Source of the DNA: Candidatus Eiseniibacteriota bacterium
GTDB taxonomy: Bacteria > Arandabacterota > Arandabacteria > Arandabacterales > Arandabacteraceae
NCBI GenBank assembly: GCA_043808325.1
Contig: JAZDEY010000082.1
Span: 3,636-67,635, forward strand
Length of the DNA stretch: 64,000 nt
Direction of reading: 5' to 3'
Shown here: positions 16,225-37,308 of the stretch, piece after piece
How positions within the stretch are numbered: position 1 is the first letter of the stretch
Layout: each line of letters starts with the position of its first letter
Notes under the pieces: generated by a model
What the model was told of the DNA's origin: nothing
The model's database searches: none
What the model saw: the letters and a program-made list of their open reading frames with translations, nothing else
Made by a program: the position numbers and the translations under genes

Positions 16225-16730
16225 TCGAATATCCTCCCCAGCAGCTTCTCAAATCGTCCGGATATGTGCTGCGTGGCCTCCTCTACGTCCTCCGCTTTGA
16301 CGTATATCCAATGGACGTAAAGATAGCCGTCGTCGGTCAGGTCAACGGTGATCGTACCCGGCGTCAGAGTTATGGAGTTGGCAAGCATTGTCCTGCCCGC
16401 ATTGCTTTTCAGGGATGTCTTGATCTTGACTATTCCCGGCCTTATCGGCAGATCCGGATGGATGACCCTATAGACCACGTCCAGGTTGGCGTGGATCATG
16501 GCCCACAAGAAGGTGGGAATATAGACCAGGAACCAGAATATGCGGGTCGGGATACCCTTCAAGCGGACCCCTCCCGGGACCTTGTCGCCAAAGAAGATCC
16601 CTACGAAGAGGGCGACAAATACGCCCAGCACCGTACTCTGTACATCGAAATCATTCGTGCCGGGATAGAAGGGCCACACCAGCAGGAACCATAGCACAAA
16701 TGACACAAGTGTAAGGGTCAGCCTTCTCAA
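16221..16730 (-). CDS. mrpE: Mrp antiporter subunit E-like (MnhE)
   Basis: 169 aa; two N-terminal TM helices then a soluble domain. Confidence 0.65.
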   Translation of the reverse strand: MRRLTLTLVSFVLWFLLVWPFYPGTNDFDVQSTVLGVFVALFVGIFFGDKVPGGVRLKGIPTRIFWFLVYIPTFLWAMIHANLDVVYRVIHPDLPIRPGIVKIKTSLKSNAGRTMLANSITLTPGTITVDLTDDGYLYVHWIYVKAEDVEEATQHISGRFEKLLGRIFE

Positions 16731-16742
16731 GCCATCTCCTCC

Positions 16743-18227
16743 TTACATCCCCAATACCCGGGTCGCATACTCAAAGCCTTCTTGAAGAGCCTTAGCCGCC
16801 GGCATGAAGAAGCCGTCTTTGACCTGCGGAAGCCACAGCAATCCCATGAGCGTGGCGAGAACCGCAAATCCCACCATGGAGATTCGCATGAAAACCGGCA
16901 CTTCATGCGCTGAAGCGTAAGCTTCCTTGGGTTCTCCGAAGAAGGTTCTCCGCTGCATTCTCATAAATGCGGCAAGCGTGAGAATGCTCACCCCTGTTGC
17001 CCATGCGGCATAACCGTATTTCTCCGCCTGCACGGCCGCAATGATTATGAAGAGCTTGCTCCAGAAACCGCTGAAAGGCGGTATCCCTGCAATTGACATA
17101 GAGCCTATGAGCGAGGTTGCTCCTGTGACCGGCATCTTGTCCCGCAGGGCGCCCATTTTGTTCATGTCCCGCGTCCCGGTCGAATACTCGATAGCGCCGG
17201 CGTTGAGGAACAACAAGGACTTGAAAACCGCGTGATTCATGAGATGGAAAAGAGCAGCCGCGATTCCCAGTCTTGTGCCGAGGCCAAATCCAAGCACAAT
17301 ATATCCAACCTGGCTTATGCTCGAATACGCCAGGAACCGCTTGATGTCGTCCTGCCCCATCGCCAAGAGCACACCTACGACCATCGAGACAGTACCAAGC
17401 ACAAGCAGTATCGTGGAGATAAGCGGCGTCATGCCCATCGCATTGAACAGGATCCTTGCCATGGCATACAGCCCGATCGTCTTGATGAGGACCCCCGAGA
17501 GCATCGCCGATATGGGAGCGGGGGCGGACGGGTGGGCATCCGGCAGCCATGAGTGGAACGGAATCAGTGCAGATTTAAGTCCAAAACCGGCAATAAATAG
17601 AGCAAGTGCAAAGAAGAAAAGGGGCTGAGTATTGCCAGCCAGGACCCTGGAGATCTGAGCCAGATTGAGGTTGCCGGTCAGGGCGTAGGTTATTGCGATC
17701 CCTAAGAGGATGAGCGTAGAGCCCACACTCCCGAGGACGAGATACCTGAACGAGGCCTCGAGCTCCTCATGCTGGCAGCCAAAGGCAACAAGTGCGTATG
17801 AAGCAATTGACGCAATCTCAAGAAAAACATAAAGATTGAAGATGTCGCCCGTCAGCGCAACCCCGAGCATTCCCCCGACCATCAGCAAGAACAGACTGTA
17901 GAACCGGGATTTCGACGTGAACCTGTCCATGTACTGGATCGAATAGACCGTCACGAGGAAGGAGACAAGCGTGATCGTGATCAGCATGACAACCGAAGCG
18001 CTATCCAGCACGAGATTGATCCCGATGGGTATCCCGGCCCTCGGCAGCCACCCTCCCATCCAGTAAACACCGCTCTTGCCGATCACAGAAAGTGCCATCA
18101 GGAAAAGCACGAGCGTCGTCACATTTCCGAGCACATCACAGAGCCGCGGATTCTTTCTTCCAACCAGCGGAATGAGAAAGCCGGCCCCCAGGGGGATCGC
18201 AACAAACAACGGAAGAATCTGCATCAT
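16743..18227 (-). CDS. mrpD: Mrp antiporter subunit D-like (NuoM/NuoN family proton-pumping subunit)
   Basis: 494 aa polytopic; conserved NuoM/N-like helices (e.g. HSWLPDAH). Confidence 0.8.
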   Translation of the reverse strand: MMQILPLFVAIPLGAGFLIPLVGRKNPRLCDVLGNVTTLVLFLMALSVIGKSGVYWMGGWLPRAGIPIGINLVLDSASVVMLITITLVSFLVTVYSIQYMDRFTSKSRFYSLFLLMVGGMLGVALTGDIFNLYVFLEIASIASYALVAFGCQHEELEASFRYLVLGSVGSTLILLGIAITYALTGNLNLAQISRVLAGNTQPLFFFALALFIAGFGLKSALIPFHSWLPDAHPSAPAPISAMLSGVLIKTIGLYAMARILFNAMGMTPLISTILLVLGTVSMVVGVLLAMGQDDIKRFLAYSSISQVGYIVLGFGLGTRLGIAAALFHLMNHAVFKSLLFLNAGAIEYSTGTRDMNKMGALRDKMPVTGATSLIGSMSIAGIPPFSGFWSKLFIIIAAVQAEKYGYAAWATGVSILTLAAFMRMQRRTFFGEPKEAYASAHEVPVFMRISMVGFAVLATLMGLLWLPQVKDGFFMPAAKALQEGFEYATRVLGM

Positions 18228-18234: not shown

Positions 18235-18582
18235 CTAACCTCTTAGCCTCCGGATTTCCTGTATGTCGTAAGTGCCGTATCGTTCATATAGCCGCATGGC
18301 AATCGCTACCGTCATTGCCGTGACGCCGACCCCGATCACGATCGCGGTAAGAACAAGCGCCTGGGGAATGGGGTCAACCGAGCTGCGCGCGAAGGTGTCG
18401 GGTGGGATCGTGGTATCCATAATAGGCGCGATCCCCTTCAGCCGGTATCCGATCATGACAAGAAAGAGATTGACCGAATTCTCAAGAACAACAAGACCGA
18501 TTATGATCTTGATGAGATTTCTCTTCACCATCACACCGTAAAGCCCGACCATGAAGAGCATAAGACACAGTGCATAGAGCAT
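18235..18582 (-). CDS. mrpC: Mrp antiporter subunit C-like (NuoK family)
   Basis: 115 aa, three TM helices, NuoK/MnhC-like. Confidence 0.75.
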   Translation of the reverse strand: MLYALCLMLFMVGLYGVMVKRNLIKIIIGLVVLENSVNLFLVMIGYRLKGIAPIMDTTIPPDTFARSSVDPIPQALVLTAIVIGVGVTAMTVAIAMRLYERYGTYDIQEIRRLRG

Positions 18583-18594: not shown

Positions 18595-19077
18595 CTATTC
18601 TACCTTCTGCTCCCCCTCGTAGACTACCCTAAGAAGGATCAGCAGTATGAAAAGCAAGAACAGCGAACTGGCAACTTTAAGGGCAATCGCAATATTACAG
18701 AGCGGAATGATGCCGCCACTGACAAGATGAAACGGCCGGCCTATATGCAGTACCTTGACCGGGAAATTGCCGAAGAACACACCCCCGAGGCTCGGCAACA
18801 TGCCCAGAAGCGCGATCGTAAGGAACATGAGGCCCCCGATACTGTCGATCTCAGCAACGATGTTCATGCTGAGGATCTTCGGTGCTCCAGTCTTGCCGTA
18901 GGAGAGGACCAGCATCACAAAGGCAAGGGCCAGGATGACGCCGCCGGCAAAGCCGCCACCAGGGGTGAGGTGACCGTATGCAACGATGTAGATGCCAAAG
19001 ACAAGAATGAAGCCTTTAACCCAACCCGCCATGGTCTTCACTATCGATGTCATGCCCTGCGGTTTCACTCCTGCCAT
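18595..19077 (-). CDS. mrpB: MnhB-domain membrane subunit (MrpB-like)
   Basis: YGHLTPGGGFAGG motif; 4-5 TM. Start uncertain (13-nt overlap with the upstream gene, or an internal Met). Confidence 0.7.
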   Translation of the reverse strand: MAGVKPQGMTSIVKTMAGWVKGFILVFGIYIVAYGHLTPGGGFAGGVILALAFVMLVLSYGKTGAPKILSMNIVAEIDSIGGLMFLTIALLGMLPSLGGVFFGNFPVKVLHIGRPFHLVSGGIIPLCNIAIALKVASSLFLLFILLILLRVVYEGEQKVE

Positions 19078-19634
19078 TCCAGCTCCTCCGGCTCGGATGA
19101 TGCCTTGCGAGCCCTCTTTCGGATTATGGCGATGGCACCCATCACGGCGGTAAAGAGCACCGTTGCCTCTCCGAGGGTATCATAAGCTCTGTAATCAAGG
19201 ATCACCGCGCTCACGATATTCGCAGCGCCGGTGTCATTGACACCGTTCATGACGTAATACATCGAGGGTGTGTTCGGAATGACTGAAAACACCGGATGGC
19301 CGAACTCCGGCAAGCCTTGGAACACCCTCATCGATGCAAGAAACACCACGAAAAGCAGGGTCATGGTGACCATCAAACCGAAGAAGTCCCTGTTCCCGGC
19401 GAATGACTTGAGTCCGACCCTCAGAGTCGCTCTAATCAGGATAATCAAGGTAAGCACCTCGACCACGATCGGCACGATCGCAACGTCGGGCGCCAGCATA
19501 AAGAAGAACGCGATAATGAGGCCGAAGCCCACGGCTGTTATGGAGACAACGACAGCCAGCAGGTCCCGAATCTCAATGGCGATTATCGCTGCTATTATGG
19601 TGAAAAGAACCACTACTCCCAGCAATTCAACCAT
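19065..19634 (-). CDS. DUF4040 + MnhB-like membrane subunit (equivalent to the MrpA C-terminal domain / MbhD-E), separate ORF
   Basis: N-terminal DUF4040-like helices (APDVAIVP) and MnhB-like NIVSAVILDYRAYDTLGEATVLF. Confidence 0.65.
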   Translation of the reverse strand: MVELLGVVVLFTIIAAIIAIEIRDLLAVVVSITAVGFGLIIAFFFMLAPDVAIVPIVVEVLTLIILIRATLRVGLKSFAGNRDFFGLMVTMTLLFVVFLASMRVFQGLPEFGHPVFSVIPNTPSMYYVMNGVNDTGAANIVSAVILDYRAYDTLGEATVLFTAVMGAIAIIRKRARKASSEPEELEWQE

Positions 19635-19637: not shown

Positions 19638-21461
19638 TCACCTCAGTAGAATAAGCATGATAATGAGCCAGCCGGCAAGTGCCCACGTAAGATAGTCCGG
19701 AAGGTTCCCGGTATGAATTGCTCTGAATCCCTTGACGAAATAGTAGGCGAGTCGACGGCCTATCTCGTACAGATCAAGAGATCTCCTCTGGGCGGCGCCA
19801 TACACGCTCTTGAAAAAGCCCATGTCACTCACGGTCCGGTAAAAGTCCGTTCCGGTCACCCTGGTCTCGCTAGGCAGGATTTCACCCCCGACATAGGCTG
19901 AATCCACTCTTACCGCCTTCAGCCTGCCCGCCAAGTAGATTACCAGACCAATCACGATGCCGACCATGATCATAACCGTGGCGAGCCCTGGACTCCACCA
20001 GCCGAGCCACTGGCTCACGCCCGGGACCACTAGCGAAGGCACAGCACTAACCGCCGGTATTATAAACGGTTTGAGAACCAACGAATAGGCAAAAACGCCG
20101 AACGCAACGCAGAGCGCCGCCAGCACGATCATGGGCAGCACCATTGTGAGGCCGACTTCCCTGGGACCCGCGCCACGCTTGGCACGGACACCGAGAAAGA
20201 CCGAGTGAAGCACTTTCACGAAGCTTGCGAGGGTAAGTGCTGAACCAAACAGCGCGGCAACGAGCCAGATCACCCACAGATGACCGCCATTCTTGGACAT
20301 GCCTATTATTCCCTGGTAAACCATCCACTTTGAGGCAAAACCATTGAAGGGAGGAACACCCGATATCGCCAGGGACGCTATCGCACATGCTCCGAAGGTT
20401 ATCGGCATGTACCTCGCAAGCCCGCCGAGGCTGTCCAGATCGGTTGTGCCCTCCCGTTTCTCCACAGCGCCACTGCAAAGGAACAGCAACCCCTTGTAGA
20501 TGGCATTATTGAGCATGTGGAAAAGTCCGCCGGCTATACCGATGGGATTCATCGTCCCTATCCCTATCACCATGTACCCAACCTGGGAAACGGCATGGAA
20601 GCCGAGCAGCCGCTTCATGTCGTGCTGGACAAGCGCCATCATCACCGCCGCGATGATCGTGAACGATCCGACGATAAGCAGGAGCAGCATCATCGCCGGC
20701 GTCAGGTTGAAAACGTGAAGCGAGATGCGGGCGAGCAAGTATATACCCAGAAGCTTGTCCACCGACGCCGGCAAGAAGGCAACCGCTGATGCGGGGCCCC
20801 ATTCAGCCGCGTCGGGTATCCAGCTGTGGAAGGGCATGGCGCCGGCTTTGGCAAATGCTGCACAGGCAAAGAGAATGAAAGCAAAACAGGAAAGCCGCGT
20901 GATCGTCGGGATGGGATCTTGCGACAGGCTTGTTGAATCCGTCATCATCCAGAGAATCGCAACGCCAAGCGCCATCAGAGCGTCGGTGCCGCCGACTATT
21001 ATCATGGTCTTCTTAGCAGCAGCCGAGGCCCTAGCCCCCGCAACACCTATCAGCAGATAAAGAGTGAGACCCAAAAACCCCCAAAAGCTGAGGAGCATGA
21101 CGAGATCGTTAGAAAGGACGGCGCCGTATGCTGCTCCAAGGGAGAGAAGGGAATAGGCATAGTACTGTTTGAGATTCGGCTTGCCCCTCATAAATCCGAG
21201 GGAATAGACCATCATCAGGAGGCCAAAGAAACCTATCGAGAGAAGAACAAACGATGATAGATAGTCCACCTTGAAGAGCGTCATCCCAAACATCTTGCTC
21301 TCGAGCCACCCCTTCCGGAACAGGACTATCGTGAGCCAGAAGGTCACCCCCACGATGATGACGGCGATCGTTTCCTTGACGCCCTTGAGGGCATCCGGGA
21401 TAATCCTCACAAGGAGGCCGGCAATCATCGGGATAAGAATCGTGTAGCCCACTAGATCCAT
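19638..21461 (-). CDS. NuoL/MrpA-N-like antiporter subunit (MbhH-like)
   Basis: 607 aa; about 16 TM; NuoL/MrpA-family helices (HSWIPDAAEWGP). Confidence 0.85.
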   Translation of the reverse strand: MDLVGYTILIPMIAGLLVRIIPDALKGVKETIAVIIVGVTFWLTIVLFRKGWLESKMFGMTLFKVDYLSSFVLLSIGFFGLLMMVYSLGFMRGKPNLKQYYAYSLLSLGAAYGAVLSNDLVMLLSFWGFLGLTLYLLIGVAGARASAAAKKTMIIVGGTDALMALGVAILWMMTDSTSLSQDPIPTITRLSCFAFILFACAAFAKAGAMPFHSWIPDAAEWGPASAVAFLPASVDKLLGIYLLARISLHVFNLTPAMMLLLLIVGSFTIIAAVMMALVQHDMKRLLGFHAVSQVGYMVIGIGTMNPIGIAGGLFHMLNNAIYKGLLFLCSGAVEKREGTTDLDSLGGLARYMPITFGACAIASLAISGVPPFNGFASKWMVYQGIIGMSKNGGHLWVIWLVAALFGSALTLASFVKVLHSVFLGVRAKRGAGPREVGLTMVLPMIVLAALCVAFGVFAYSLVLKPFIIPAVSAVPSLVVPGVSQWLGWWSPGLATVMIMVGIVIGLVIYLAGRLKAVRVDSAYVGGEILPSETRVTGTDFYRTVSDMGFFKSVYGAAQRRSLDLYEIGRRLAYYFVKGFRAIHTGNLPDYLTWALAGWLIIMLILLR

Positions 21462-22669
21462 ATCTTGTCCATCCTCGAATTATACTTCTCCATGAGCTTC
21501 CGGGTTTTCTCATGCGATAGCCTGAGAAGATCCTTGCCGGTCAGCAGCTGCCGGCCGCTGCCGGCATCAACCACGAGCGTCCGCTCCGTACAACAATAGC
21601 ACGGGTCAATCGCTGCGAGCGTTATGGTGGCATCCGACACGGTATAGCCCACACAAGCGCGCTTATTTGTCGGCACATTCATGAAACTCGGCGCGCGGAT
21701 CTTGTATCTCACGGGGCGGTTGCTACCGTCCGACCGGGTATAATGTATGACCTCCCCTCGCGGAGCTTCATGGGTTCCGATGCCTTCACCGGGGGGAATC
21801 TCGGTGAGGTTCGCATCGATGCCGTCCTTCACCTCGAGGAGCTTCCGGCAGCACTGCTTGCATATCTTGACCGACTCGAGGATCTCCAGGACCCGCACCA
21901 CGAGCTTATCGAAGACGTCGCCCCTTTCGGTGACGATCACGTCGAAGTCGACGTCGCCATAGGCCGCGTAAGGATGGTCCCTCCGCACGTCTATGGGAAC
22001 ACCGGAAGCTCTCGCCGTCGGCCCAAGAGCCCCGAGCTCGATGCAATCCTGCTTGGTAAGGACGCCGATGTTCTTGGTCCTGGCCTGAAGCACGGGATCG
22101 GAGAGCGCAACATCGCGGAACATCAAGGTGGGCTTTACTAGGCTGTCGAGGATACGCACTGCCGAAGCGATATCCTCATCGGCAAAGTCACGCCGGACAC
22201 CGCCGGGCTTCATCATGCCGTAATGATTGCGGTTACCGGTCAGGAGCTCAAAGAGATCCAGCACGGGTTCCCTATACTTCCAGGCCCACATCCACACCGT
22301 GTTGTAGCCCAGGAAGTGGCCCGCCAGCCCCAGCCACAGAAGGTGGGAGTGAACCCTCTCCAATTCCCCGATGAAGGTTCTGATGTACTTGGCTCGCTCG
22401 GGAATCTCAACGCCGGCAACGTCCTCGGTCGCCATCACGCCGGCGAAGGGGTGCGACGAAGAGCAGATGCCGCAGATCCGCTCGACCAGGAAAGGAATCT
22501 GATCATAGCTCAGACCCTCAGCCAGCTTCTCGATACCGCGATGGTTATAGCCTATCTCTATCTCAAGCTCGACCACTTTCTCACCCTCGACGTGGAGCTT
22601 GAAAAACTCGGGCTCCTCCTGCAGAGGATGATAAGGTCCGATCGGAATTACAGTCTTACTTTTGGCCAT
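21452..22669 (-). CDS. group-4 [NiFe]-hydrogenase large subunit (NuoD/MbhL/EchE-like)
   Basis: N-terminal Ni-binding motif RICGICSSSH; C-terminal DPCYCCTER followed by a 41-aa extension. Start at ATG 22669 (MAKSKTVIPIGPY) with GGAGGGG RBS. Confidence 0.9.
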   Translation of the reverse strand: MAKSKTVIPIGPYHPLQEEPEFFKLHVEGEKVVELEIEIGYNHRGIEKLAEGLSYDQIPFLVERICGICSSSHPFAGVMATEDVAGVEIPERAKYIRTFIGELERVHSHLLWLGLAGHFLGYNTVWMWAWKYREPVLDLFELLTGNRNHYGMMKPGGVRRDFADEDIASAVRILDSLVKPTLMFRDVALSDPVLQARTKNIGVLTKQDCIELGALGPTARASGVPIDVRRDHPYAAYGDVDFDVIVTERGDVFDKLVVRVLEILESVKICKQCCRKLLEVKDGIDANLTEIPPGEGIGTHEAPRGEVIHYTRSDGSNRPVRYKIRAPSFMNVPTNKRACVGYTVSDATITLAAIDPCYCCTERTLVVDAGSGRQLLTGKDLLRLSHEKTRKLMEKYNSRMDKIWI

Positions 22670-23120
22670 TGTCCCCGCCCCTCCAATCCTTCCAATCCTT
22701 CCGCAACGGGTGATTGTCCGTAGGCCAGTCATCCGACAGCAAGAGATGTCTCATGTCCGGGTGATTCCGGAACTCAATTCCCAGCAGTTCGTGCATCTCC
22801 CGCTCGATCCACTCGGCCGCGGGCACCCGGATCGCTATCGACTCGATCGAAGGCTTATCCGGATCGAGTATCACACGGAGATTGAGGAAACGGTGCGCCC
22901 GGTCAAGCGGAAAGTGATACAGTATCTCCATGCCGCCTACCATGTGCATCCCCGTAGCGATCGAGAAGCGGCAACCCAGTTCCTTATATAGATACTCGGC
23001 CACGTCCGGTAGCCCTTTGGGATCGACCGTGATATAGGTCCGGCCGGGGCTCTTATCGTAAACTTCGATGATCGCGGCTCCGAACCTGGTCTTAAGACCC
23101 TGCAGAACCTCGTCCGCCAT
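22656..23120 (-). CDS. NuoC-like 30-kDa subunit (MbhK/EchD-like)
   Basis: 154 aa; NuoC-like fold region ERE(M/V)xE(L/M)xGI (EREMHELLGIEFRNHPDMRHLL). Confidence 0.8.
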   Translation of the reverse strand: MADEVLQGLKTRFGAAIIEVYDKSPGRTYITVDPKGLPDVAEYLYKELGCRFSIATGMHMVGGMEILYHFPLDRAHRFLNLRVILDPDKPSIESIAIRVPAAEWIEREMHELLGIEFRNHPDMRHLLLSDDWPTDNHPLRKDWKDWRGGDNGQK

Positions 23121-23133: not shown

Positions 23134-23565
23134 CTATTTCTTGCTCGCCGCAAGCTTGGCCTGGACCAAAGCCACAACGGCCTGAATCATGGCCTCCGGC
23201 TTGGGTGGGCATCCCGCAATGTAAGCATCAACCGGGACAACCTCATCAAGCGGCCTGGTCTCATTATATGATTTCCCAAACATCTCCGTAGAGCAAGAAC
23301 AATTGCCTAAGGCAATCACAAAACACGGCTTGGGCGCCTGAGCGATCACCCGCTTGAGTACCTTGCTTGATTTGCGGTTCATCGAGCCCGTAACCAGGAT
23401 CGCATCCGCGTGGCGGATGCTCCCGACCAGCTGAATCCCGAAGCGCTCAAGATCAAAGCGGGGAGTGAGAGCGTCAAGTATCTCGATGTCGCAGTTATTG
23501 CACGGGCTGGCTGCGAGATGAAAGACCCAGATCGATTTCGTGAGCGCCTTAAGCTTTAGACTCAT
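23134..23565 (-). CDS. [NiFe]-hydrogenase small subunit (NuoB/MbhJ-like, single proximal 4Fe-4S)
   Basis: Cys ligands in SPCNNCDIE, GNCSCS and GCPPKPE. CxxC spacing rather than the adjacent CC of NuoB, as I recall for Mbh-type small subunits. Confidence 0.85.
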   Translation of the reverse strand: MSLKLKALTKSIWVFHLAASPCNNCDIEILDALTPRFDLERFGIQLVGSIRHADAILVTGSMNRKSSKVLKRVIAQAPKPCFVIALGNCSCSTEMFGKSYNETRPLDEVVPVDAYIAGCPPKPEAMIQAVVALVQAKLAASKK

Positions 23566-23575: not shown

Positions 23576-24511
23576 TCACAAACCCAGGAAAGCCAGAACC
23601 ACCGCCGCAACACCGAAGGGTGTCACCATCGCCCAGAAGAACTTCATTACCTGATCGATCCTAAGTCTAGGATTAGTGTTTCTTATGAGCGTCATCAACA
23701 GAAGTATCACCAAGTATCCGACCACCCCGTAAACCAGACTTAGCCAGGATGATCTCCAGTTCAAACCACCGAGGAAAAGCACAATCATAAAGAGCGGCAT
23801 CACGAAAGCCATCATCCACTGGGTCAGCTTGAAGAGCCCTAGCGGGATACCGGAATACTCTATGTATGCGCCACCCATGATCTCGGTCTCCGCCTCAGGA
23901 GCATCAAAGGGAACCTTGCCGAGCTTCGCTTGAGCAACAAGGAGACAGATAAGAAAGGCAATCACGCCGGAAATTGAGGCGATTATTGGCCGCCCAGCGG
24001 CCTGATACTGTATGATTTCGTCGAGCCTTATCGTGTTTCCCGCCTTGATTATAGCGACCAGTATGGCAAGCACGAAAGGAAGCTCGTAGGAGAGAATCAT
24101 CTTCATTTCCCTGGAGCCACCCAACGATGCAAGCGGATTGCCCGATGCGAACGCCCCCAGAATCACGGCCTGAGACGGGATGGTAAGAAGATAGATCACG
24201 ACGATGAGATCGCCGACGAAGGTCTGAGATGGAAATACGATTGTCCTCAGGAGGATCGCGCTAACTACCGCGACAGCTGCAAGCGCGAAAAGCGGTGCCG
24301 ACAGGAAAAGGAAACGTGACGCGCCCTCGGGCACGATGACCTCCTTGCCCAAGAGCTTGACGAAGTCATAGACCGGCTGGAAGAATGGCGGGCCAACCCT
24401 CCACTGTATTCTGGCCGTGATCTTGCGGTCGAACCAGTGAGCGAACATGCCGACCACGGCCGCAATCACGAAACCCACAACCAGGAATCCCATCGCTTGA
24501 AGAATGCTCAT
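23576..24511 (-). CDS. NuoH/HycD/MbhM-like membrane subunit
   Basis: 311 aa, 8 TM; NuoH-family helices (RKITARIQWRVGP, GIPLGLFKL). Confidence 0.85.
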   Translation of the reverse strand: MSILQAMGFLVVGFVIAAVVGMFAHWFDRKITARIQWRVGPPFFQPVYDFVKLLGKEVIVPEGASRFLFLSAPLFALAAVAVVSAILLRTIVFPSQTFVGDLIVVIYLLTIPSQAVILGAFASGNPLASLGGSREMKMILSYELPFVLAILVAIIKAGNTIRLDEIIQYQAAGRPIIASISGVIAFLICLLVAQAKLGKVPFDAPEAETEIMGGAYIEYSGIPLGLFKLTQWMMAFVMPLFMIVLFLGGLNWRSSWLSLVYGVVGYLVILLLMTLIRNTNPRLRIDQVMKFFWAMVTPFGVAAVVLAFLGL

Positions 24512-24520: not shown

Positions 24521-25003
24521 CTACCTCTTCCAGACGTCACATTTCACTACCAAATGCTCGCCACCCTGGTGGAGCTTTTTCGCCTCATCGGGCTCGATCT
24601 CTACGAACTTGATTGCGCCCAGAGGACAGGTCTTGACACACAGCGGGTCGTCAGCTGGAGCGATCCTGCCCAGGCAGTAATCGCACCTTGAGAGCCAGTA
24701 CGGGATCAGTTCCGGGTAAATCGTGCCAAAGGGACAGGCCAGAGCGCAGGATTTGCAGCTTATGCATCTCAGGTTGTGCCGCCTGAGGACGCCGCCGGGC
24801 TCCTTCTCGAGGGCCTCCTTGGGGCAGGCATTGATGCAGTTCCCCGATTCGCACTTTCGGCAGATGACGGCATAGGCCGCCAGCTCTCGAAGACTAGTTA
24901 TGCCGTCGTTGGCCGGGTGGTAGGGGTAACTACACCGGGTCGTGCACTGCTCCTTGGCCTCGCACCCGTCGCATATGTCCAGATCGATGAAGATCTTTTT
25001 CAA
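24521..25003 (-). CDS. polyferredoxin (HycB-like), 4 Cys clusters
   Basis: CDGCEAKEQCTTRC, CRKCESGNCINACP, CISCKSCALACP, CDYCLGRIA...CVKTCP. Confidence 0.75.
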   Translation of the reverse strand: MKKIFIDLDICDGCEAKEQCTTRCSYPYHPANDGITSLRELAAYAVICRKCESGNCINACPKEALEKEPGGVLRRHNLRCISCKSCALACPFGTIYPELIPYWLSRCDYCLGRIAPADDPLCVKTCPLGAIKFVEIEPDEAKKLHQGGEHLVVKCDVWKR

Positions 25004-25021: not shown

Positions 25022-25855
25022 TTAATCCCAAAGGGCCGGCTTGCCCTTGATAAGGTCATAGGTCATCACCGGGCCGTCCCTGCACACCATGTATTCGCCC
25101 AGCATGCAATGCCCGCATTTGCCTATCCCACAACTCATGTTCTTTTCCATGGAGAGATAGATCACGTTATCGGGAAAGCCTAGCTCCACCAGCTTCAAGG
25201 TGGCGAACTTCATCATGACGGGCGGGCCGCAGACCACCACCAGGCTGTTTGCCATATCGAGCCCGAGGTCCTTGACCACGGTCGTCACCACGCCCACGTT
25301 GCCTTTCCAGGTGGGATCGCCCACGTCCACCGAGAGCCGGAATTCGATCCTGGATGGGTTTATCTTGGGCCACTGCTCCAGGATCTGGGACTTATAGATG
25401 ATGTCCTGCGGCGCTTTGGCGCCGTAGCAGAAGAGGATCTTCTTGAAATCGTCAAGCCGGTTACACAGTGCCAGGAAAAGTGACCGGAGCGGAGCAAGCC
25501 CGACACCACCCCCGACGATCAAGATCTCCTTGCCTTTGAAGTGGTCCAGGGGATAGCCCTTGCCCATCGGGCCCCTGACGCCGACCGTCTCGCCCTTCTT
25601 CATAGCGTGGAGCACACCCGTTACCTTACCCGCCCTCATTATGGTGAACTCCAGGGTCTCCCTGACCCGAGGATTGGAGGAGGGCGTGAAGGGAGCCTCA
25701 CCCAGGCCCGGCACGGTGACTTCCATGAACTGACCGGCCTCAAAGGGAATCTCCTCACTGGGCCTCAGGACAAAGGTCTTGATCGTAGAGCTTTCGTCGA
25801 TCACCTCTAGGATCTCGGCAAGTATCGGCTTATAGATGTCTTTAGCTACCGACAT
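25022..25855 (-). CDS. AsrB/HydG (sulfhydrogenase gamma)/PyrK-like FAD-NAD(P)-binding subunit with C-terminal 2Fe-2S
   Basis: FNR-like barrel, GGGVGLAP NAD-binding loop, C-terminal MSCGIGKCGHC...VCRDGP. Start at ATG 25855 (MSVAKDIYKPIL) with AAGGAAG RBS. Confidence 0.75.
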   Translation of the reverse strand: MSVAKDIYKPILAEILEVIDESSTIKTFVLRPSEEIPFEAGQFMEVTVPGLGEAPFTPSSNPRVRETLEFTIMRAGKVTGVLHAMKKGETVGVRGPMGKGYPLDHFKGKEILIVGGGVGLAPLRSLFLALCNRLDDFKKILFCYGAKAPQDIIYKSQILEQWPKINPSRIEFRLSVDVGDPTWKGNVGVVTTVVKDLGLDMANSLVVVCGPPVMMKFATLKLVELGFPDNVIYLSMEKNMSCGIGKCGHCMLGEYMVCRDGPVMTYDLIKGKPALWD

Positions 25856-26952
25856 ACTTCCTTGAGCACCTTTCTCATGTCTATCTTGCCCGGGCAGCCG
25901 GCTATGCATCTGCCGCAGCCGGTGCACCCGTCGAAGCCATAGTTCTTCGGAAAATAGTCGAGCTTATGATAGTACCTGTGCTTGAAGCGCTCGACCAGGT
26001 GTTTGCGGGGATTTGCGCCCCCGGCGACTTGCGCGAAACGCTTATAGGCGCAGGCATCCCACATCTTGAGCCGCTTGTAGCGGTCCCGGAATCTCTCATC
26101 ATAGAGGAGAAAACACTGGCAGGTGGGGCACAGGAAAAGGCATGCGCCGCACTCGACGCAGGTCTCAACATGCTTGGCCCAGGCGGCGTCGTCGTACGCT
26201 CCGGCAAGCAGCTCCGGCCAGGTCTTGGGCGGCTTGTACTCCGCCGACTGTTTCTCGACCGACTGCAGCGTCTTCTGCCGGATCGCCTGGCGCTCCGCGA
26301 GATGCTTATCGGTCGCGGGCTTGAATACATCCTTATTGGCGTCGGCAGCTTCCTTGCCCTTGTCGCTTCCGACTTCGGCAACGTAGCCGCCTTCGAGCTT
26401 GGTCAGGTTCAAGTCAAAACCCTTCTCGGCATAGGGCTTCACACCGACCAGCACGCAAAAACAGGTCTCCAGAGGCTCGGTGCAGTCGGTGCTCACGACA
26501 AAGCCTTTCTTGCGGCGTTCCTCATAGAAGGGATCCTTGAAATCGCCCTCCAGGAAGACCTTGTCGAGGGCTTCGATAGCCCTCACGTCGCAGGCCGATG
26601 CCCCCACTATTGCAAAGGGCCTGGATTCTTTGAAGGAGCTCTCTTTGGAAGGGTACTCAGCAACCTCTTCGAGCAAGGAGAAGAAGAAGGGTTTAAGCGG
26701 CTGAAATGATCTTACGCCGGGATAGGTAAACCCGCCGGCCGCAGCGTAGGGCTTTATCCTTACTCGCCCCTCGTCATCCTTGGTGGTCACAAACAGGTCG
26801 CCGCGCTTCTCAAACCAGGACAAGAACCTGGGGAAGTCCGAATCAGTTACGTAGTAGGCCGTCATCCACCTTTTTCCTGTCTGTGAATCGGCGTAGCCTT
26901 CAACCGCGCCGATCTTGTCCCACCGAATCGGTGAACATATATTGTCGCTCAC
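25846..26952 (-). CDS. AsrA/HydB (sulfhydrogenase beta)-like iron-sulfur subunit
   Basis: IVGASACDVRAIEALD and C-terminal CVECGACLFLCPTCQCF, CTGCGRCIAGCPG. GTG start right after an in-frame stop. Confidence 0.7.
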   Translation of the reverse strand: MSDNICSPIRWDKIGAVEGYADSQTGKRWMTAYYVTDSDFPRFLSWFEKRGDLFVTTKDDEGRVRIKPYAAAGGFTYPGVRSFQPLKPFFFSLLEEVAEYPSKESSFKESRPFAIVGASACDVRAIEALDKVFLEGDFKDPFYEERRKKGFVVSTDCTEPLETCFCVLVGVKPYAEKGFDLNLTKLEGGYVAEVGSDKGKEAADANKDVFKPATDKHLAERQAIRQKTLQSVEKQSAEYKPPKTWPELLAGAYDDAAWAKHVETCVECGACLFLCPTCQCFLLYDERFRDRYKRLKMWDACAYKRFAQVAGGANPRKHLVERFKHRYYHKLDYFPKNYGFDGCTGCGRCIAGCPGKIDMRKVLKEVCR

Positions 26953-26998
26953 CTCACGTCAAGCGAAAACCGGGAAGTTGACGCGACGAAACTCAGGA

Positions 26999-27141: not shown

Positions 27142-28320
27142 CTATCGGAAGATGGCCTTGATCGCGCCCCAAGTGGAAGGCTGAATCGCGCTTGGACCAC
27201 AGGCGCACCCGTCACCCAACGCGCCGATGAGACCGCAATTGGTGCCGGCAGGATGATTGCCCGGCAAGCAGGGTGATGTGCTGCAAAGCCTAAGGTCATA
27301 AGGCTCACCTTCGTGATAGCAGAATCCGGGGCAAACCGAGAAATCGCCGCCTTGGCCAACCATGCCGGCGATAACCCCGACCCAATCACCGCCCTCATTA
27401 CCGTGGATGTCGGTGCATCCTATGTTTGGTCCATAGTCGGGGTCATCGACATGGTAGAAACCACACCCACCGGTTCCGTAGGCAATTATGCAATTGCTGA
27501 TCGCCTCCCCCACATAGGCGGAAATCGCGCTGCCCTCGGGTGCATGATTGGCGAAGAAGGTGCAACCCGCGATGCGTGCCCCTCCAGCCATATTGTTCAC
27601 GGCGATGGCCCCGCCGTATGAACCCGACCAGTTGCCGCAGAAAACACTGTTGCGGATGATCGCATCGGCTTCATGACCATCGCAGTAAATGGCGCCTCCT
27701 CCAGGCCAGTACGCCCGATTGCCGTTGAAGGTGCAGCCATCGATCGTGATATTAAAATAGATGCCGTAAAAATAGATAGCGCCCCCGCAACCCGCCTCAT
27801 TCGAGGTGAATGTACAGTTGCTGATAACGGCATTACACGTCCAACAATAGAGGTCGAATGCGCCACCGGAGCCCTCGGTCGAGTTGGAGACGAAGGCACA
27901 GTCTCTTGCCGTGATCGACAGGCCCGAACCCCCCGATGAGGTGTTGTATGCCAATACGGCCGGGCCGGCGTCTCGAATCGTGATGCCGTCGAGCACGAGG
28001 TTCCCCTTCTCAATATCAAAAACATGTCGCAATCCACTCGGGTCCAGGTCTTCTTCCCCGTCGATCACGCAATCGCCGGCATTACCGGTTTCCGATCGTA
28101 TCAATATGGCTTTATCGGGGACCACCATGTTGTAGTTGCCGGCACCGCGGAAGGTGCCGCTGGCAAGCAGCAGCGTGTCTCCAGAGACCGCCAGACTGAT
28201 GCCCGCCTGGATCGTGGGCACATCCCCGGATCCGTCAGGGCTGATGTAGATAGTGTGGCACGAGGCCGGACCGGCAATGAGAAGAACGGCCGCAGCCAAT
28301 ACCAATAGCAAGCATCGCAT
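27142..28320 (-). CDS. secreted right-handed parallel beta-helix repeat protein
   Basis: Signal peptide; repeated (G)xAIxxxN/C(T/F) beta-helix rungs (NCTFTSNEAGCGGAIYF, CTFFANHA...). Confidence 0.55.
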   Translation of the reverse strand: MRCLLLVLAAAVLLIAGPASCHTIYISPDGSGDVPTIQAGISLAVSGDTLLLASGTFRGAGNYNMVVPDKAILIRSETGNAGDCVIDGEEDLDPSGLRHVFDIEKGNLVLDGITIRDAGPAVLAYNTSSGGSGLSITARDCAFVSNSTEGSGGAFDLYCWTCNAVISNCTFTSNEAGCGGAIYFYGIYFNITIDGCTFNGNRAYWPGGGAIYCDGHEADAIIRNSVFCGNWSGSYGGAIAVNNMAGGARIAGCTFFANHAPEGSAISAYVGEAISNCIIAYGTGGCGFYHVDDPDYGPNIGCTDIHGNEGGDWVGVIAGMVGQGGDFSVCPGFCYHEGEPYDLRLCSTSPCLPGNHPAGTNCGLIGALGDGCACGPSAIQPSTWGAIKAIFR

Positions 28321-30613: not shown

Positions 30614-33388
30614 ATGAGAAGGAAGATTGCCCTGACACTGGTGTGCGCCGCAGTGGCCTTTGCGGCCGCATTCATTCAGTTTGTGAATCGCGGCTACGTT
30701 GGAGCGATAGATGCCGGCGACTCGGTCCGACTTATGGGCTATGGCCCGCACCTACGCGCACCGTGGCAGCGCGTTGCCTTCTATCCCATAGAGACCCGCG
30801 AGATCACCATCAGGAACTCATCCGAGGGACCACAGGGCAGATTCAACTTCGACATCAGTCTGGAGTTGTCGGTCCGCCGCAACAACGTGGCCGCGCTCCA
30901 CCGGTCCTATCGTGGGAAGTACGCCGAGGTCCTGATCTCACCGCTCGTCGCCGATTTCCTGAGGCGCCGCGGGGATGGATCCGGTAACTGGGACTGGGGA
31001 GGCGATACTCAGAAGACCGGCAAAGAGATCGTTACTTATCTCAATTCCTCACTCGCTACATATAAAATCAATGTGTACGCGGCGTCGCTCCGGTCCTTCG
31101 AGGTGGTCACCAACCCGGAGGACAAGAGGATATCGGCTGTCGCCGACCAGGTCGGGGGGCGAGTGATCGTCGTCGGTTGTGACGGCTTTGACTGGGAGAT
31201 CTACCGGGCAGTCTCGAAGATCAAGCGCATGCCCAACATCGAGAAGCTGATTGCCGAGGGCGCAACCGGCGATTTGCTCTCGATGGAACCCTTGATCTCT
31301 CCCATGATCTGGACCACGCTGGCAACCGGTGTCGAGCCTCCGGCTCACGGCATAGTGGACTTTCTGATGAAGGATGCTGCCACGGGCGAAGACGTGCCCA
31401 TATCAAGCGGCATGCGGCGGGTGCCCGCCCTGTGGAACATGATGACGCGCTTCGGGCGGTCCTCAGGTTTCATCGGATGGCTGGGGACCTTTCCGGCCGA
31501 AGCGGTCAAGGGTTTCATGGTGTCGGACCGCGTGGGCTATCACATCTTCGATCCCCGCTGGCAGAAGGGCGCTTCCTATGAGGCCGACCGGGGCGGCGCC
31601 CGCCGCGCCGACACACCCGGCCTCATCTATCCCGATAATCTCGTGGGCGAGATTCGGCCCTTTATCCTCGACGCCAGCGAGGTTCCCTACGAGACCGTGG
31701 CGGATTTCATAAAGGTCGGGCGCGACCAGATCGCGCCCCAGGCGAAGACTTTCGATCCGCTGGACCTTCCCCGAAATCTGAGAGTCGCCCTGGCATCGAA
31801 CCTCACCTACGAGAGCGTTGCCCGGTATGCATACAAGCAGTACCGGCCCCAGCTCTTCTCGGTATACCTCGATCTTATCGATAACACATGTCATCTTTTC
31901 ATCAAGTATATGGAGCCTCATACTCAGGACGTATCCGACCGGGACGCGCAGAAATATGGCGGAGCAGTGCTGGAGGCCTATGCTCACACCGATCGCTTGG
32001 TCGGTGAGTGGCTCAAGGTGGTCGACGAGGGGACCACCCTGATCTTCCTCTCCGATCACGGCTTCAAGAGCGGCGACCTGCGGCCTAGGGCACCCTCGGT
32101 CGTAGGCGCGCCTCAGGCGGTCGCCTGGCACAGGATGGCGGGTGCGATCGCCCTCTATGGCAACCACGTCCGGAAGGGGGCCAAGCTCACCGATGCGGGT
32201 ATCCTCGACATCGCCCCGACAATCTTGCGACTGGTCGGTCTTCCCAAAGCCAAGGACATGTCGGGGCGGGTGCTCGAGGCCGCCTTCGATTCCGATTGGC
32301 TCGCGGTCTCATCCCAGACCGGCGAGATAGCAACCTACGGGGTGCGGACCGCGGTAGCATCGTCACCGAGACAGAAGGAAGAAGAAGCGGCCATCCTCGA
32401 TCGGCTCAAGGCCCTGGGCTACGTGGGAGGCGCGCCCACCGACCTCACCAAACTTGCTCACTCGCTGATGATGAAGGGGGAATTCGACAAGGCGATCGAG
32501 ATCTGGAACGAGATCCTTGCCAAGGAACCCGGCAATCTCGATGTTGTCGTCGCGATGGGCAATGCCCTGATCCAGAAGGGCGACCTTGATAAGGCCTACA
32601 TGGTGCTCAGTGACGCCACCAAGAAGGATCCGAACTTCCTGCCGGCCCGGAATATGCTGGCCCTCTACCACATCAACGTGGGTCACCTCGATGAGGCGGC
32701 CAGGATCTCGAAGGGCGTGATCGCCAACGATCCCAAGAACGCCGAGGCCTATTTTAACCTCGGAGTGGTGCTGGACCAGCAGGGAAGATACGACGAGTCT
32801 TTCGCAGCCTTCAAGCAATCGGTCGAGCTCCGGGGGGATTTCGACCAGGCCCGGATGAACCTTGGCAACGCCTACCTTCGGCGGGGCAGGTCTGTCGAGG
32901 CCAAGATCCAGTTTGAGAAGGCAATTGAGATAAACCCCGGCGACCCGCACGCGTGGTACTCGCTGGGGCGGATAGCCCAGACGACCAACAGACCCAACGA
33001 TGCTATCGCCAATTACCGTGAGGCACTGAAGCGCATGCCGAGCTTCAACCCTGCGCGCATAGGTCTGGCGATCGCTCTCGCCTCAGGCGGACAATTCGAA
33101 GAGGCGAAACGGGAGCTCGAGAGCGGCCTTCAATACAAATTCGACCTGGGTGCGATCAATACCAATATCGGTATCCTCGACCGCCAAATTGGGGATGCGG
33201 CCTCCGCCGAGAAGCATTTTAAACAGGCAATAGCTGCAGACCCTCAATATATCCCGGCGAGACTTGACCTGGCGGATCTTTATGCCGGCCGGGGAGACAA
33301 GGCCAAAGCGCGCCGAGAGGTCGAAGCCGCCTTGCGGCTTGACCCCACAAATGCCGAGGCCAAGAGACTCCTCGGAACTCTGAGGTAG
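30614..33388 (+). CDS. membrane-anchored NPP-like phosphodiesterase domain (alkaline-phosphatase superfamily) fused to C-terminal TPR repeats
   Basis: N-terminal TM; VIVVGCDGFDW...PMIWTTLATGVEPPAHGI...LIFLSDHGF (NPP/type I phosphodiesterase-like); C-terminal about 380 aa of TPR repeats. Confidence 0.75.
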   Translation: MRRKIALTLVCAAVAFAAAFIQFVNRGYVGAIDAGDSVRLMGYGPHLRAPWQRVAFYPIETREITIRNSSEGPQGRFNFDISLELSVRRNNVAALHRSYRGKYAEVLISPLVADFLRRRGDGSGNWDWGGDTQKTGKEIVTYLNSSLATYKINVYAASLRSFEVVTNPEDKRISAVADQVGGRVIVVGCDGFDWEIYRAVSKIKRMPNIEKLIAEGATGDLLSMEPLISPMIWTTLATGVEPPAHGIVDFLMKDAATGEDVPISSGMRRVPALWNMMTRFGRSSGFIGWLGTFPAEAVKGFMVSDRVGYHIFDPRWQKGASYEADRGGARRADTPGLIYPDNLVGEIRPFILDASEVPYETVADFIKVGRDQIAPQAKTFDPLDLPRNLRVALASNLTYESVARYAYKQYRPQLFSVYLDLIDNTCHLFIKYMEPHTQDVSDRDAQKYGGAVLEAYAHTDRLVGEWLKVVDEGTTLIFLSDHGFKSGDLRPRAPSVVGAPQAVAWHRMAGAIALYGNHVRKGAKLTDAGILDIAPTILRLVGLPKAKDMSGRVLEAAFDSDWLAVSSQTGEIATYGVRTAVASSPRQKEEEAAILDRLKALGYVGGAPTDLTKLAHSLMMKGEFDKAIEIWNEILAKEPGNLDVVVAMGNALIQKGDLDKAYMVLSDATKKDPNFLPARNMLALYHINVGHLDEAARISKGVIANDPKNAEAYFNLGVVLDQQGRYDESFAAFKQSVELRGDFDQARMNLGNAYLRRGRSVEAKIQFEKAIEINPGDPHAWYSLGRIAQTTNRPNDAIANYREALKRMPSFNPARIGLAIALASGGQFEEAKRELESGLQYKFDLGAINTNIGILDRQIGDAASAEKHFKQAIAADPQYIPARLDLADLYAGRGDKAKARREVEAALRLDPTNAEAKRLLGTLR

Positions 33389-33522: not shown

Positions 33523-34392
33523 ATGTATGCCAATAGGCAAGCTATCGTACCGCAGGATGTCGTCAAGCAGTTCAAGCAGGATCTCACCCAGCGTGGATAC
33601 AGTGCAAGAACGACTGAAGTCTACGCAACAGCCGTATCATCCTTCCTGAAAGCAGTGCCCAACCCGGCATCTCCCACACCTGATGATGCCGACAAGTACA
33701 TCCGGGGCATCCTCGAGGGCACGTCGAAGGGTGGTGCATCACAGTCTTCGGTGGGTATCGCCGCCAGTGCCATCAAGCTGCTCTTCAAACACCAGTTCGG
33801 AAAACCGCTCGAGCTCTCGGTGGAGCTCAAGAGACGGGCGCGGCCGATGCCGTCGATTCTCAGCAGGGAGGAGATCCAGAAGATCGTCAGTATCACGAGG
33901 AACGTCAGCCACAGACTGATCTTCCAGCTCATGTATTCTTCGGGCCTCAAGCTGGATGAGCTTCTGGGCCTCCAGGTAAAGGACGTCGACATCGAGGGGA
34001 AGAAGCTCACCATCCGCGGCAACGCGAAGAGCGGCAGAAAAGCCAAGTCCCAAAGGGAGACCATCCTCTCGGACAAGATTGGCCCAATGCTTCATGCGTT
34101 CGTCTCGGATAGGGGTCCAGAGGATTACGTGTTCCCTGGCATCGAGGGCGGCCCGATGACCCCGAGAGCAGTCCAGAAAGCCTTCAAGCAGGCTCTGAAG
34201 AAGGCGGACATTAAGAGGAAGGCCAGCTGCAATTCGCTGAGACATTCCTTCGCGGTCCATCTGCTTCAGAAGGGTACGGACATAAAGCACGTCAGGCGGC
34301 TGCTCGGGCACGCCCGGACCGAGACCACGTCGATCTACAAGCGACTGGTCACCGAAGAGAAGGTTGCGATAAAGAGCCCGCTGGACCTATAG
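33523..34392 (+). CDS. tyrosine-type site-specific recombinase/integrase (XerC/D-like)
   Basis: N-terminal SAM-like domain; C-terminal catalytic LRHSFAVHLLQKGTDIKHVRRLLGHARTETTSIYKRL (R-H-R-Y core). Confidence 0.85.
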   Translation: MYANRQAIVPQDVVKQFKQDLTQRGYSARTTEVYATAVSSFLKAVPNPASPTPDDADKYIRGILEGTSKGGASQSSVGIAASAIKLLFKHQFGKPLELSVELKRRARPMPSILSREEIQKIVSITRNVSHRLIFQLMYSSGLKLDELLGLQVKDVDIEGKKLTIRGNAKSGRKAKSQRETILSDKIGPMLHAFVSDRGPEDYVFPGIEGGPMTPRAVQKAFKQALKKADIKRKASCNSLRHSFAVHLLQKGTDIKHVRRLLGHARTETTSIYKRLVTEEKVAIKSPLDL

Positions 34393-34474: not shown

Positions 34475-34623
34475 GACTTGCAGCCCGCTGCATATATCAT
34501 GATCTAGGTTACTTCACTCTTTTCAACATAACCTGACTGGAGCCTGCGGGGTCGCATATGGAAGCTGCGATCATGGCAAAGCCGACGCGCAGAGCATTGA
34601 AGAAGGAGGCAAGGCACGTGAGG

Positions 34624-35229
34624 ATGCTGATCCTTTATTACTCTCTCTATGGCCACATTCACCGTATGGCACAGGCGGTATCTGAAGGCGCCAGGGAGGT
34701 TCCGGGAGTAGACGTGTTTCTGCGCCGAGTCCCGGAGACGCTACCCGAGGTGGTGCTTGAGAAGATGGGGGCGCTGGAGGCCCAGAAATCGATGGCCGCT
34801 GTTCCCATGTGCACAGTCGAGGAACTGGGACTGGCCGACGCCGTGATCTTCGGGACTCCCACGCGCTACGGCAACATGTGCGGTCAGATGCGCCAGTTCC
34901 TTGACGCCACGGGCGGCCTATGGACAAGAGGCGCCTTGGTGGGCAAGGTGGGCAGCGTATTTACAAGCTCGGCCACGCAGCACGGCGGCCAGGAATCGAC
35001 CATCCTGAGTTTTCACACAACCCTGCTTCATCACGGGATGGTGGTTGTCGGACTGCCGTATGCCTTCCAGGGCCAGACGCGCATGGACCAGATCACCGGT
35101 GGTTCCCCTTACGGGGCCTCCACGATCGCTGGAGCCAAGGGCGAGCGGTGGCCAAGCGAGAACGAGCTCGCCGCCGCGAGATACCAGGGCAGGCACACCG
35201 CAACCATAGCATCGAAACTCTCGAAGTAG
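34624..35229 (+). CDS. wrbA: NAD(P)H:quinone oxidoreductase WrbA (flavodoxin-like)
   Basis: [23 protein letters not shown] and GTPTRYGNM...FTSS WrbA signatures. Start at internal ATG 34624 by analogy to WrbA N-termini. Confidence 0.75.
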
Positions 35230-35304
35230 CCGGTGCGGGCAGCCATATGGTCATCTTGACTTGAATTGAGGCCATCACTAGATTGCATACGGAGGAAAAT
35301 GTAG

Positions 35305-36015: not shown

Positions 36016-36100
36016 TCGCCGGATCTGGAGTCTGCGGAACTGAAACCCGTGTAGCTTAAGTCCGCAAGCAATACGCGGGGTGTGGAGGAGGCTCGCACCT

Positions 36101-37288: not shown

Positions 37289-37308
37289 TACAGCGAAGGA
37301 GGTTCGAG

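Follow-up and report, generated by a model that had tools for sequence, protein, structure and literature searches.

A pair of genes on the minus strand of a 64,000-nucleotide stretch of contig JAZDEY010000082.1 from a Candidatus Eiseniibacteriota bacterium (assembly GCA_043808325.1; the whole stretch is referred to as the window) encodes proteins that look like AsrA and AsrB, or like HydB and HydG, the beta and gamma subunits of sulfhydrogenase I (SHI), and the locus raises the question of which enzyme these two proteins serve, and from which carrier that enzyme takes its electrons. The first half of the question has a clear answer: the pair is hunA and hunB of the Hun complex, a 16-subunit complex encoded by a hunA-P operon and already named by Glass et al. 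(bioRxiv 10.1101/536078), and is not a new system. In that description, HunA and HunB are AsrAB-like without an AsrC, HunC is a ferredoxin, HunE, HunF, HunG and HunP constitute the hydrogenase, HunG belongs to Group 4g and has an unusual CGIC...CYCC motif, HunI to HunO are Mrp-like, and a molybdopterin protein is optionally present between HunB and HunC. The window agrees with this description in all 16 genes and in their order, likewise comes without AsrC, and shares both the CGIC...CYCC motif of HunG and the Mrp-like Na module, whereas its Eisenbacteria-like lineage is not named among the published carriers (Atribacteria, Firmicutes, Omnitrophica, Elusimicrobia, Bacteroidetes and the cultured Kosmotoga, such as K. 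olearia). It is a further member of the Hun family, from that lineage, and for the window itself the outcome of our analysis is the correct reading of a previously described system.

The second half of the question is where our view departs from the published one, in which ferredoxin was assigned as the electron donor, whereas we favour NAD(P)H, and probably NADH. We think it fairly probable that HunAB is the cytoplasmic distal module of the complex and connects it to NAD(P)H in an ion-coupled reaction, with NADH the likelier of the two nucleotides; the ferredoxin dependence commonly assumed for Hun is probably incomplete. What is new here is the argument against ferredoxin as the sole donor, which draws on an intact NAD(P) site, an invariant Asp and a linkage to rex.

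Identity of the gene pair

Both minus-strand frames are present in the open reading frame listing (25846-26952 for hunA and 25022-25927 for hunB), and the true starts of both are probably internal to these frames. For hunA, the ATG at 26865 is most likely the start, giving a protein of 339 amino acids (25846-26865, minus strand), because all HunA homologues begin at the equivalent Met, because this ATG is preceded by an AAAGG motif, and because the GTG at 26952 is overlapped by a promoter-like site, TTGACG-17-TATGTT (26934-26962, minus strand, 9 of 12 matches, 69 nucleotides (nt) 5' of the ATG), and is disfavoured for that reason. Promoter and terminator counts were at chance level in the scanned region, and this one site is suggestive by its position only. 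For hunB, the most likely start is the ATG at 25855, which yields a protein of 277 amino acids (25022-25855, minus strand) and a 10-nt overlap with the hunA stop. The polyferredoxin gene hunC starts 18 nt after the hunB stop and is preceded by a GAGG ribosome-binding site.

HunA is an iron-sulfur protein with 15 invariant cysteines, all common to AsrA and HydB, which comprise two CxxCxxCxxxCP motifs, CVECGACLFLCP and CTGCGRCIAGCP, and further cysteines. It matches Fer4_22 of Pfam at 102 bits, and falls far short of the NCBIfam cut-offs for ShyB (190 bits, cut-off 690) and HydB (155 bits, cut-off 750) as well as of the equivalog cut-off for AsrA (TIGR02910; 114.7 bits, cut-off 323). HunB belongs to the FNR-type FAD/NAD(P)-binding proteins, carries a [2Fe-2S] motif at its C-terminus and has the Pfam domains FAD_binding_6, NAD_binding_1 and DHODB_Fe-S_bind (the PyrK-type [2Fe-2S] domain), and it too stays below the cut-offs of the named subfamilies: 215 bits for hydrogenase gamma (PRK08345), 206.5 bits for AsrB (TIGR02911, equivalog cut-off 288.6), 178 bits for HydG (cut-off 650), 175 bits for ShyC (cut-off 600) and 64.5 bits for the NfnA/SudB-type model PRK06222 (cut-off 220). 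Among solved structures, the best matches are the beta and gamma chains of Pyrococcus furiosus SHI for HunA (9nez_B, E=1.6e-43) and HunB (9nez_C, E=1.6e-51), respectively. The original prediction had described an AsrA/HydB-like and an AsrB/HydG-like protein encoded at 25022-26952, with overlapping genes closely spaced to a polyferredoxin gene, and the reading frames, motifs and family and structure matches bear out this description in each respect, the overlap being 10 nt with the inferred starts and the spacing 18 nt.

Pfam scans of the large open reading frames across all 64 kb revealed no AsrC-type (NIR_SIR) protein, no second [NiFe] or group-3 hydrogenase, the sole large subunit being NuoD-like and of group 4, and no NuoEF-like or NfnB/SudA/GltD-like subunit. 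The absence of a sulfite reductase catalytic subunit and of cytosolic hydrogenase subunits, which had been claimed for the vicinity of the pair, thus extends to the whole window, and neither asrC nor hydA/hydD shares the transcript, at least 14 kb on each side being free of such genes. HunAB has the two-protein architecture and the cofactor motifs of AsrAB(C), but differs in the lack of an AsrC, in the low identity to clostridial AsrA (~26-28%), in the sub-cut-off scores, and in that AsrAB takes the position of an outgroup in trees. In comparison with P. furiosus SHI (9nez/9nf0, group 3b), HunA retains all 15 cysteines of beta and HunB the gamma motifs for FAD, NAD(P) and [2Fe-2S], but the partner here would be a membrane group-4 hydrogenase reached via the polyferredoxin, not a group-3 delta/alpha dimer, the pair falls in a separate clade, and the SVTR associated with NADPH is replaced by (T/S)VD in HunB. 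Identities as AsrABC, as a sulfhydrogenase or as Nfn/Sud were rejected on the grounds of missing partner subunits, sub-threshold hidden Markov model scores and tree position.

Recurrence of the arrangement across phyla

HunA homologues number in the thousands, with about 30 clusters at 63-97% identity and the next step at 48% or less. The closest matches with a GTDB label, at 69-73% identity, include one Candidatus Eisenbacteria metagenome-assembled genome, and the hun operon recurs around three HunA homologues at 70%, 46% and 43% identity, metagenome contigs at 43-48% included. Our comparative sample consisted of the best 80 species loci by HunA search, with one genome per GTDB species and more than 12 phyla represented, and the gene order of these loci was mapped by tblastn with the window proteins. 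The labels of the loci comprise Candidatus Eisenbacteria, Latescibacterota, Planctomycetota, Omnitrophota, Spirochaetota, Sumerlaeota, Atribacterota, Calditrichota, Elusimicrobia, Nitrospirota, Fermentibacteria, Hydrogenedentota, Chloroflexota (Dehalococcoidia and Anaerolineales), Clostridia and the cultured Desulfosarcina variabilis (strain Montpellier, L026). In every contig of the 80 that reaches far enough, we find hunA, hunB, the polyferredoxin gene, the nuoH/B/C/D-like genes and the antiporter genes, and the order of the hun genes is kept in all loci except a few rearranged ones, such as those of Spirochaetota. Translational coupling of hunA to hunB and of hunB to hunC is frequent, with overlaps of 4-10 nt, and the CYCC motif is present in 50 of the 59 related large subunits of the sampled loci. 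Where hunB and hunC could both be located (62 loci), 50 have no molybdopterin-like gene between them, which makes the form seen in the window the majority one.

We also calculated neighbour-joining trees of HunA and HunB (capped distances, 200 bootstraps), which we treat as indicative in view of the few outgroups. These were asrABC operons (Peptoclostridium, Clostridium butyricum), group-3b operons (Rhodococcus, Burkholderia), an Hdr-linked pair from Ilyobacter, group-3b-type paralogues that occur near hun in three loci (L025, L036 and L039), and the SHI chains. Hun-linked HunA and Hun-linked HunB each form a clade of their own, apart from AsrAB, from bacterial and archaeal group-3b HydBG and from the Hdr-linked pair, with a bootstrap of 200/200 for HunB and, leaving aside one very divergent Ilyobacter paralogue, of 195/200 for HunA. 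In the phylogenetic comparison that the original prediction had proposed as a check, the pair is thus placed outside both the AsrAB and the HydBG clades, and this dedicated clade, together with the recurring gene order in the 80 loci, supports the suggestion that the pair serves the adjacent membrane hydrogenase.

Related clusters have appeared in the literature under several names. Matheus Carnevali et al. 2019 (PMC6349859) reported an "enigmatic" group-4 cluster in Saganbacteria with asrA, asrB, cooF, a molybdopterin protein and Mrp, and a 2026 paper on selenocysteine-containing group-4 enzymes (PMC13582414) found SHI-beta/gamma homologues that co-occur with a degenerate formate dehydrogenase (Fdh), for which NADPH bifurcation was proposed. 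Like the window, both combine a group-4 hydrogenase and Mrp with cooF and with genes similar to asrA/asrB (SHI-beta/gamma), but they carry a molybdopterin-like subunit, which the window does not. Studies of Ace Lake annotated such clusters, among them one of our sampled loci (L064), as ferredoxin-dependent "Group 4g Mbh + Mrp". As to subgroup, the literature places Hun-type enzymes in 4g (Glass et al. and Ace Lake) and the Fdh-like variants in 4b (PMC13582414).

The sampled loci vary in a number of details. In 12 of the 62 loci, hunB and hunC are separated by a gap of 1.4-2.0 kb that contains a molybdopterin-oxidoreductase-like gene (for instance L003, 8632-10062); its product has ~476-650 amino acids, keeps an N-terminal CxxCxxxC...C cluster motif, and corresponds to what the 2026 paper (PMC13582414) calls a "degenerate Fdh". 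In one locus (L004, 13265-14279), cbiM and a PDGLE-domain gene, both components of Ni/Co uptake, are inserted between hunD and hunE, as if the hydrogenase had a nickel supply of its own. The rearranged layout of four Spirochaetota loci (L012, L030, L037 and L065) has hunP and hycI directly after hunG, and large antiporter-like genes upstream of hunA on the opposite strand, or downstream in L065. Three loci, L025 (5045-7900), L039 (4797-7400) and L036 (352-1964), have an additional HydB/HydG-like pair at a distance of 5-10 kb upstream of hunA, which shares 32-41% identity with the Hun pair and in the first two loci adjoins a [NiFe] large-subunit-like frame, so that a group-3b-type paralogue and Hun can coexist side by side in one genome. 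Outside the hun operons, Ilyobacter polytropus pILYOP01 (L087, 4018-6868) has a HunAB-like pair within an hdrABC-mvhD cluster, and in actinobacterial and Burkholderia group-3b operons (L088 and L089) the beta and gamma genes are separated by one for a cyclic-nucleotide-binding protein; the Hdr cluster and these insertions illustrate the modularity of the two-protein unit.

Electron donor of the Hun complex

The case for a pyridine nucleotide as donor starts from the motifs of HunB, the conservation of which we counted over 68 Hun-linked sequences. The flavin motifs P55-F56-x-x-S59-S60 (PF-T-PSS) and G76-x-V-T79, the nucleotide motifs G115-G-G-x-G-x-A-P122 and C209-G-P (CGPP), and the four [2Fe-2S] cysteines are all 94-100% conserved, and because of this conservation we do not consider the nucleotide site to be vestigial. 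The NAD(P)-binding loop, the inspection of which had been suggested as a means of telling NADH from NADPH preference, gives a hint in favour of NADH: Asp177, within the (T/S)VD motif, occurs without exception (68/68) and aligns with the Asp of TDDG in the NAD-dependent PyrK, and the SVTR (Thr-Arg) that the NADPH-dependent SHI-gamma has at this place is absent. An acidic residue at that strand end usually favours NADH, and judged by its sequence HunB is more likely to have NADH as its partner, NADPH being possible.

A second line of evidence is the gene preceding hunA. Rex is a sensor of the NADH/NAD+ ratio, and among the 73 loci whose sequence continues for 800 nt or more upstream of hunA, 21 have a rex gene directly upstream on the same strand (L004, 9267-9950; also, for example, L016, L021, L028, L055, L064 and L077). 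The spacing between the two genes ranges from a 9-nt overlap to a 444-nt gap and is 25 nt or less in 12 of the 21 cases, the loci concerned span at least six phylum-level labels, and canonical TGTGAA-N4-TTCACA boxes are found in 10 of them, in L004 for instance at 9196 and 9234. This linkage points to NADH/NAD+ as the redox couple involved.

The intact FAD/NAD(P) motifs, the invariant Asp177 and the rex linkage are our reasons for preferring NAD(P)H as the donor. In the mechanism that we envisage, HunB would exchange hydride between the pyridine nucleotide and FAD, the FAD would hand single electrons to HunB's own [2Fe-2S] cluster, and the electrons would proceed through the HunA clusters, then through four [4Fe-4S] clusters in HunC, two more in HunP and a single one in HunE to the [NiFe] site of HunG. 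For the overall reaction, NAD(P)H + H+ <-> NAD(P)+ + H2, we propose a coupling to H+ or Na+ movement via HunD, HunH, HunL and the Mrp-like subunits. The step from NADH to H2 is endergonic at standard conditions, so an ion gradient would have to drive H2 production from NADH at low H2, or would build up during uptake, when at high H2 the enzyme could form NAD(P)H while pumping ions.

Such a chain has precedents in modular hydrogenases. HunC resembles HycB, HycB3/4 of the hydrogen-dependent CO2 reductase and FdnH, and HunP resembles HycF and MbhN; by these likenesses, the layout copies the design of formate hydrogenlyase, which leads from a dehydrogenase over HycB/CooF, HycF and HycG to HycE. 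Escherichia coli formate hydrogenlyase (7z0s) and the Thermococcus Fdh-Mfh-Mnh and CODH-Mch-Mnh systems (CODH, carbon monoxide dehydrogenase) share with Hun the order of a dehydrogenase, a HycB/CooF-type polyferredoxin and NuoI/NuoB/NuoD-like subunits with attached antiporters, but have formate dehydrogenase or CODH where Hun has a flavin/NAD(P) module, and HunABC would accordingly stand in place of the Fdh/HycB or CODH/CooF input modules. In this role it would resemble the N-module of complex I: HunAB(C) would do the job of NuoEFG, although NuoEFG is not homologous to HunAB. HunG is closest to MbhL of P. furiosus Mbh (300 bits; structure 6cfw), ahead of E. coli HycE (269 bits), but Mbh is without an NAD(P)H module. 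One could also speculate, more tentatively, that Hun is an ion-gradient-coupled NADH:proton oxidoreductase, a complex I-like enzyme with the proton as acceptor that is controlled by Rex in many lineages.

Several points weigh against NAD(P)H as the donor. The uphill course from NADH to H2 leaves the direction and the coupling stoichiometry speculative. Group-4 enzymes usually take ferredoxin at the NuoI-like subunit, so that a ferredoxin site may coexist in Hun, on HunP or HunC, alongside the NAD(P)H input. The original description names ferredoxin as donor (Glass et al., bioRxiv 10.1101/536078), and our literature searches, Kosmotoga included, turned up neither a biochemical follow-up of Hun beyond it nor structural or expression evidence for a complex of this kind. 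The window has no rex gene and no Rex box near hunA, a search of it for TGTGAA-N4-TTCACA returning one chance-level match, at 50797. The suggestion of NADH from Asp177 derives from an alignment, and the trees are neighbour-joining trees with few outgroups, in which the support for the HunA clade drops to 99/200 once the divergent Ilyobacter paralogue is included.

A supply of electrons from reduced ferredoxin to HunABC, in which the FNR-like domain of HunB would be merely a wire or a regulator, agrees with the ferredoxin dependence of the nearest solved hydrogenase, P. furiosus Mbh; yet Mbh and Ech, both ferredoxin-dependent, do without such a module, and the 94-100% conservation of the FAD/NAD(P) motifs would be unexpected in a vestigial site. 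The solved homologue of HunB is moreover the NADPH-binding SHI-gamma, AsrB is commonly viewed as the NADH-binding flavoprotein of Asr, and the rex linkage indicates NADH/NAD+. We therefore regard ferredoxin as the driver of Hun as unlikely, even though this was the proposal of Glass et al. (bioRxiv 10.1101/536078) and the assumption made in the Ace Lake studies for "Group 4g Mbh + Mrp", L064 included.

Quite unlikely, in our estimate, is a three-way confurcation or bifurcation between H+/H2, NAD(P)+/NAD(P)H and a third partner, be it ferredoxin or an unknown substrate, as a protein for the third branch is missing from the window, with its 18 nt between hunB and hunC, and from 50 of the 62 loci. 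We know of no FNR/PyrK-type flavin site that bifurcates, the bifurcating FAD of NfnAB is located in NfnB, and no NfnB/SudA/GltD-like or NuoF-like subunit was found in the window. For group-4b clusters with SHI-beta/gamma and a degenerate Fdh-like subunit, however, such a scheme has been proposed with the help of AlphaFold3 (PMC13582414), and the 12 of 62 loci with a molybdopterin-like gene between hunB and hunC are in line with it; for this molybdopterin-containing variant of Hun, three-way confurcation is plausible, and it is less so for the window.

It is very improbable that HunAB works like Asr or a sulfhydrogenase, as a module that is driven by the hydrogenase and reduces sulfite, sulfur or polysulfide, which one might gather from the fact that AsrA/AsrB and the beta and gamma subunits of sulfhydrogenase are its homologues, and from JGI annotations of the type "sulfhydrogenase subunit beta (sulfur reductase)": the window has no AsrC or siroheme subunit, the AsrA and AsrB scores are far under the equivalog cut-offs, the pair stands outside the AsrAB clade, and no linked sulfur-metabolism genes were seen in the related loci examined. 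A stand-alone, soluble NAD(P)H:acceptor oxidoreductase that lies beside the hydrogenase operon by chance is hardly credible given the dedicated clade and the invariant adjacency or overlap with hydrogenase genes in more than 12 phyla, the service of related pairs to other partners (Hdr in Ilyobacter, group-3b hydrogenases) being nothing specific to such an enzyme.

The distinction matters beyond the window, as many uncultured anaerobic phyla carry Hun-type operons, which metagenome studies routinely annotate as ferredoxin-dependent "Mbh/Group 4g", while the HunAB genes are open to misreading as sulfur or sulfite reductase subunits. If Hun is coupled to NADH or NADPH, the redox balance, the H2 thresholds and the energy yield in metabolic reconstructions would need revision, and NADH and H2 would be linked by an ion-coupled route that involves no bifurcation. 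Widespread anaerobes, among them Omnitrophota, Planctomycetota, Atribacterota and Eisenbacteria-like lineages, could then shed NADH as H2 without flavin-based confurcation or, alternatively, gain NADH and ion-motive force from H2.

Layout of the operon and neighbouring genes

All 16 hun genes of the window are contiguous on the minus strand, and neighbours either overlap or are at most 18 nt apart. After hunA and hunB, hunC (24521-25003) encodes a HycB/CooF/FdnH-type polyferredoxin with 16 conserved cysteines for a predicted four [4Fe-4S] clusters, and is followed by genes for the NuoH/MbhM-like membrane subunit (hunD, 23576-24511), the NuoB-like hydrogenase small subunit with its 4 invariant cysteines (hunE, 23134-23565), the NuoC-like subunit (hunF, 22656-23120) and the group-4 [NiFe] large subunit (hunG, 21452-22669). 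The start of hunG was inferred from homologues, the open reading frame extending to 22732; its product has intact L1 and L2 Ni-Fe motifs (RICGICSSSH and DPCYCCTER) and a C-terminal extension for cleavage by HycI. The antiporter part begins with a NuoL/MrpA-like subunit of 607 amino acids (hunH, 19638-21461) and continues with MbhD/MbhE-like (hunI, 19065-19634), MnhB-like (hunJ, 18595-19077), NuoK/MnhC-like (hunK, 18235-18582), MrpD/NuoN-like antiporter (hunL, 16743-18227), MnhE-like (hunM, 16221-16730), MrpF-like (hunN, 15961-16224) and MnhG-like (hunO, 15606-15986, likely start ATG 15968) subunits. An ATGA overlap joins hunO to hunP (15001-15609), the gene of a NuoI/HycF/MbhN-like ferredoxin subunit with two [4Fe-4S] clusters and a C-terminal 4-Cys extension, and 58 nt after hunP stands hycI (14451-14942), which encodes a hydrogenase maturation endopeptidase. 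Cluster-ligand cysteines are thus conserved throughout the proposed chain (15 in HunA, 16 in HunC, 8 in HunP besides its 4-Cys tail, 4 in HunE), and the L1/L2 motifs, the 4-Cys NuoB-like subunit and the NuoH/NuoL-like and Mrp subunits identify the enzyme as a group-4 Mrp-linked [NiFe] hydrogenase.

The operon is bounded upstream by the promoter-like site and an unrelated beta-helix protein, and downstream by hycI and unrelated genes. The position of hycI differs from that in a related locus (L001, 8616-9071), where it lies upstream of hunA and divergent from it. The genes upstream of hunA in the window encode a secreted beta-helix/PMP-repeat protein (27142-28320), a ZIP transporter and a PAS protein. 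Further on are genes for a phosphodiesterase-TPR protein of 924 amino acids (30614-33388) and a tyrosine recombinase (33523-34392), and a plus-strand cluster for defence against oxygen and reactive oxygen species (34558-37782) with an FMN reductase, a flavin reductase-rubredoxin fusion, an ODP/metallo-beta-lactamase (flavodiiron-like) protein and rubrerythrin. The defence cluster, the recombinase gene and the phosphodiesterase-TPR gene are syntenic with the region adjoining hun in the 70%-identical relative (L001, 812-4216).

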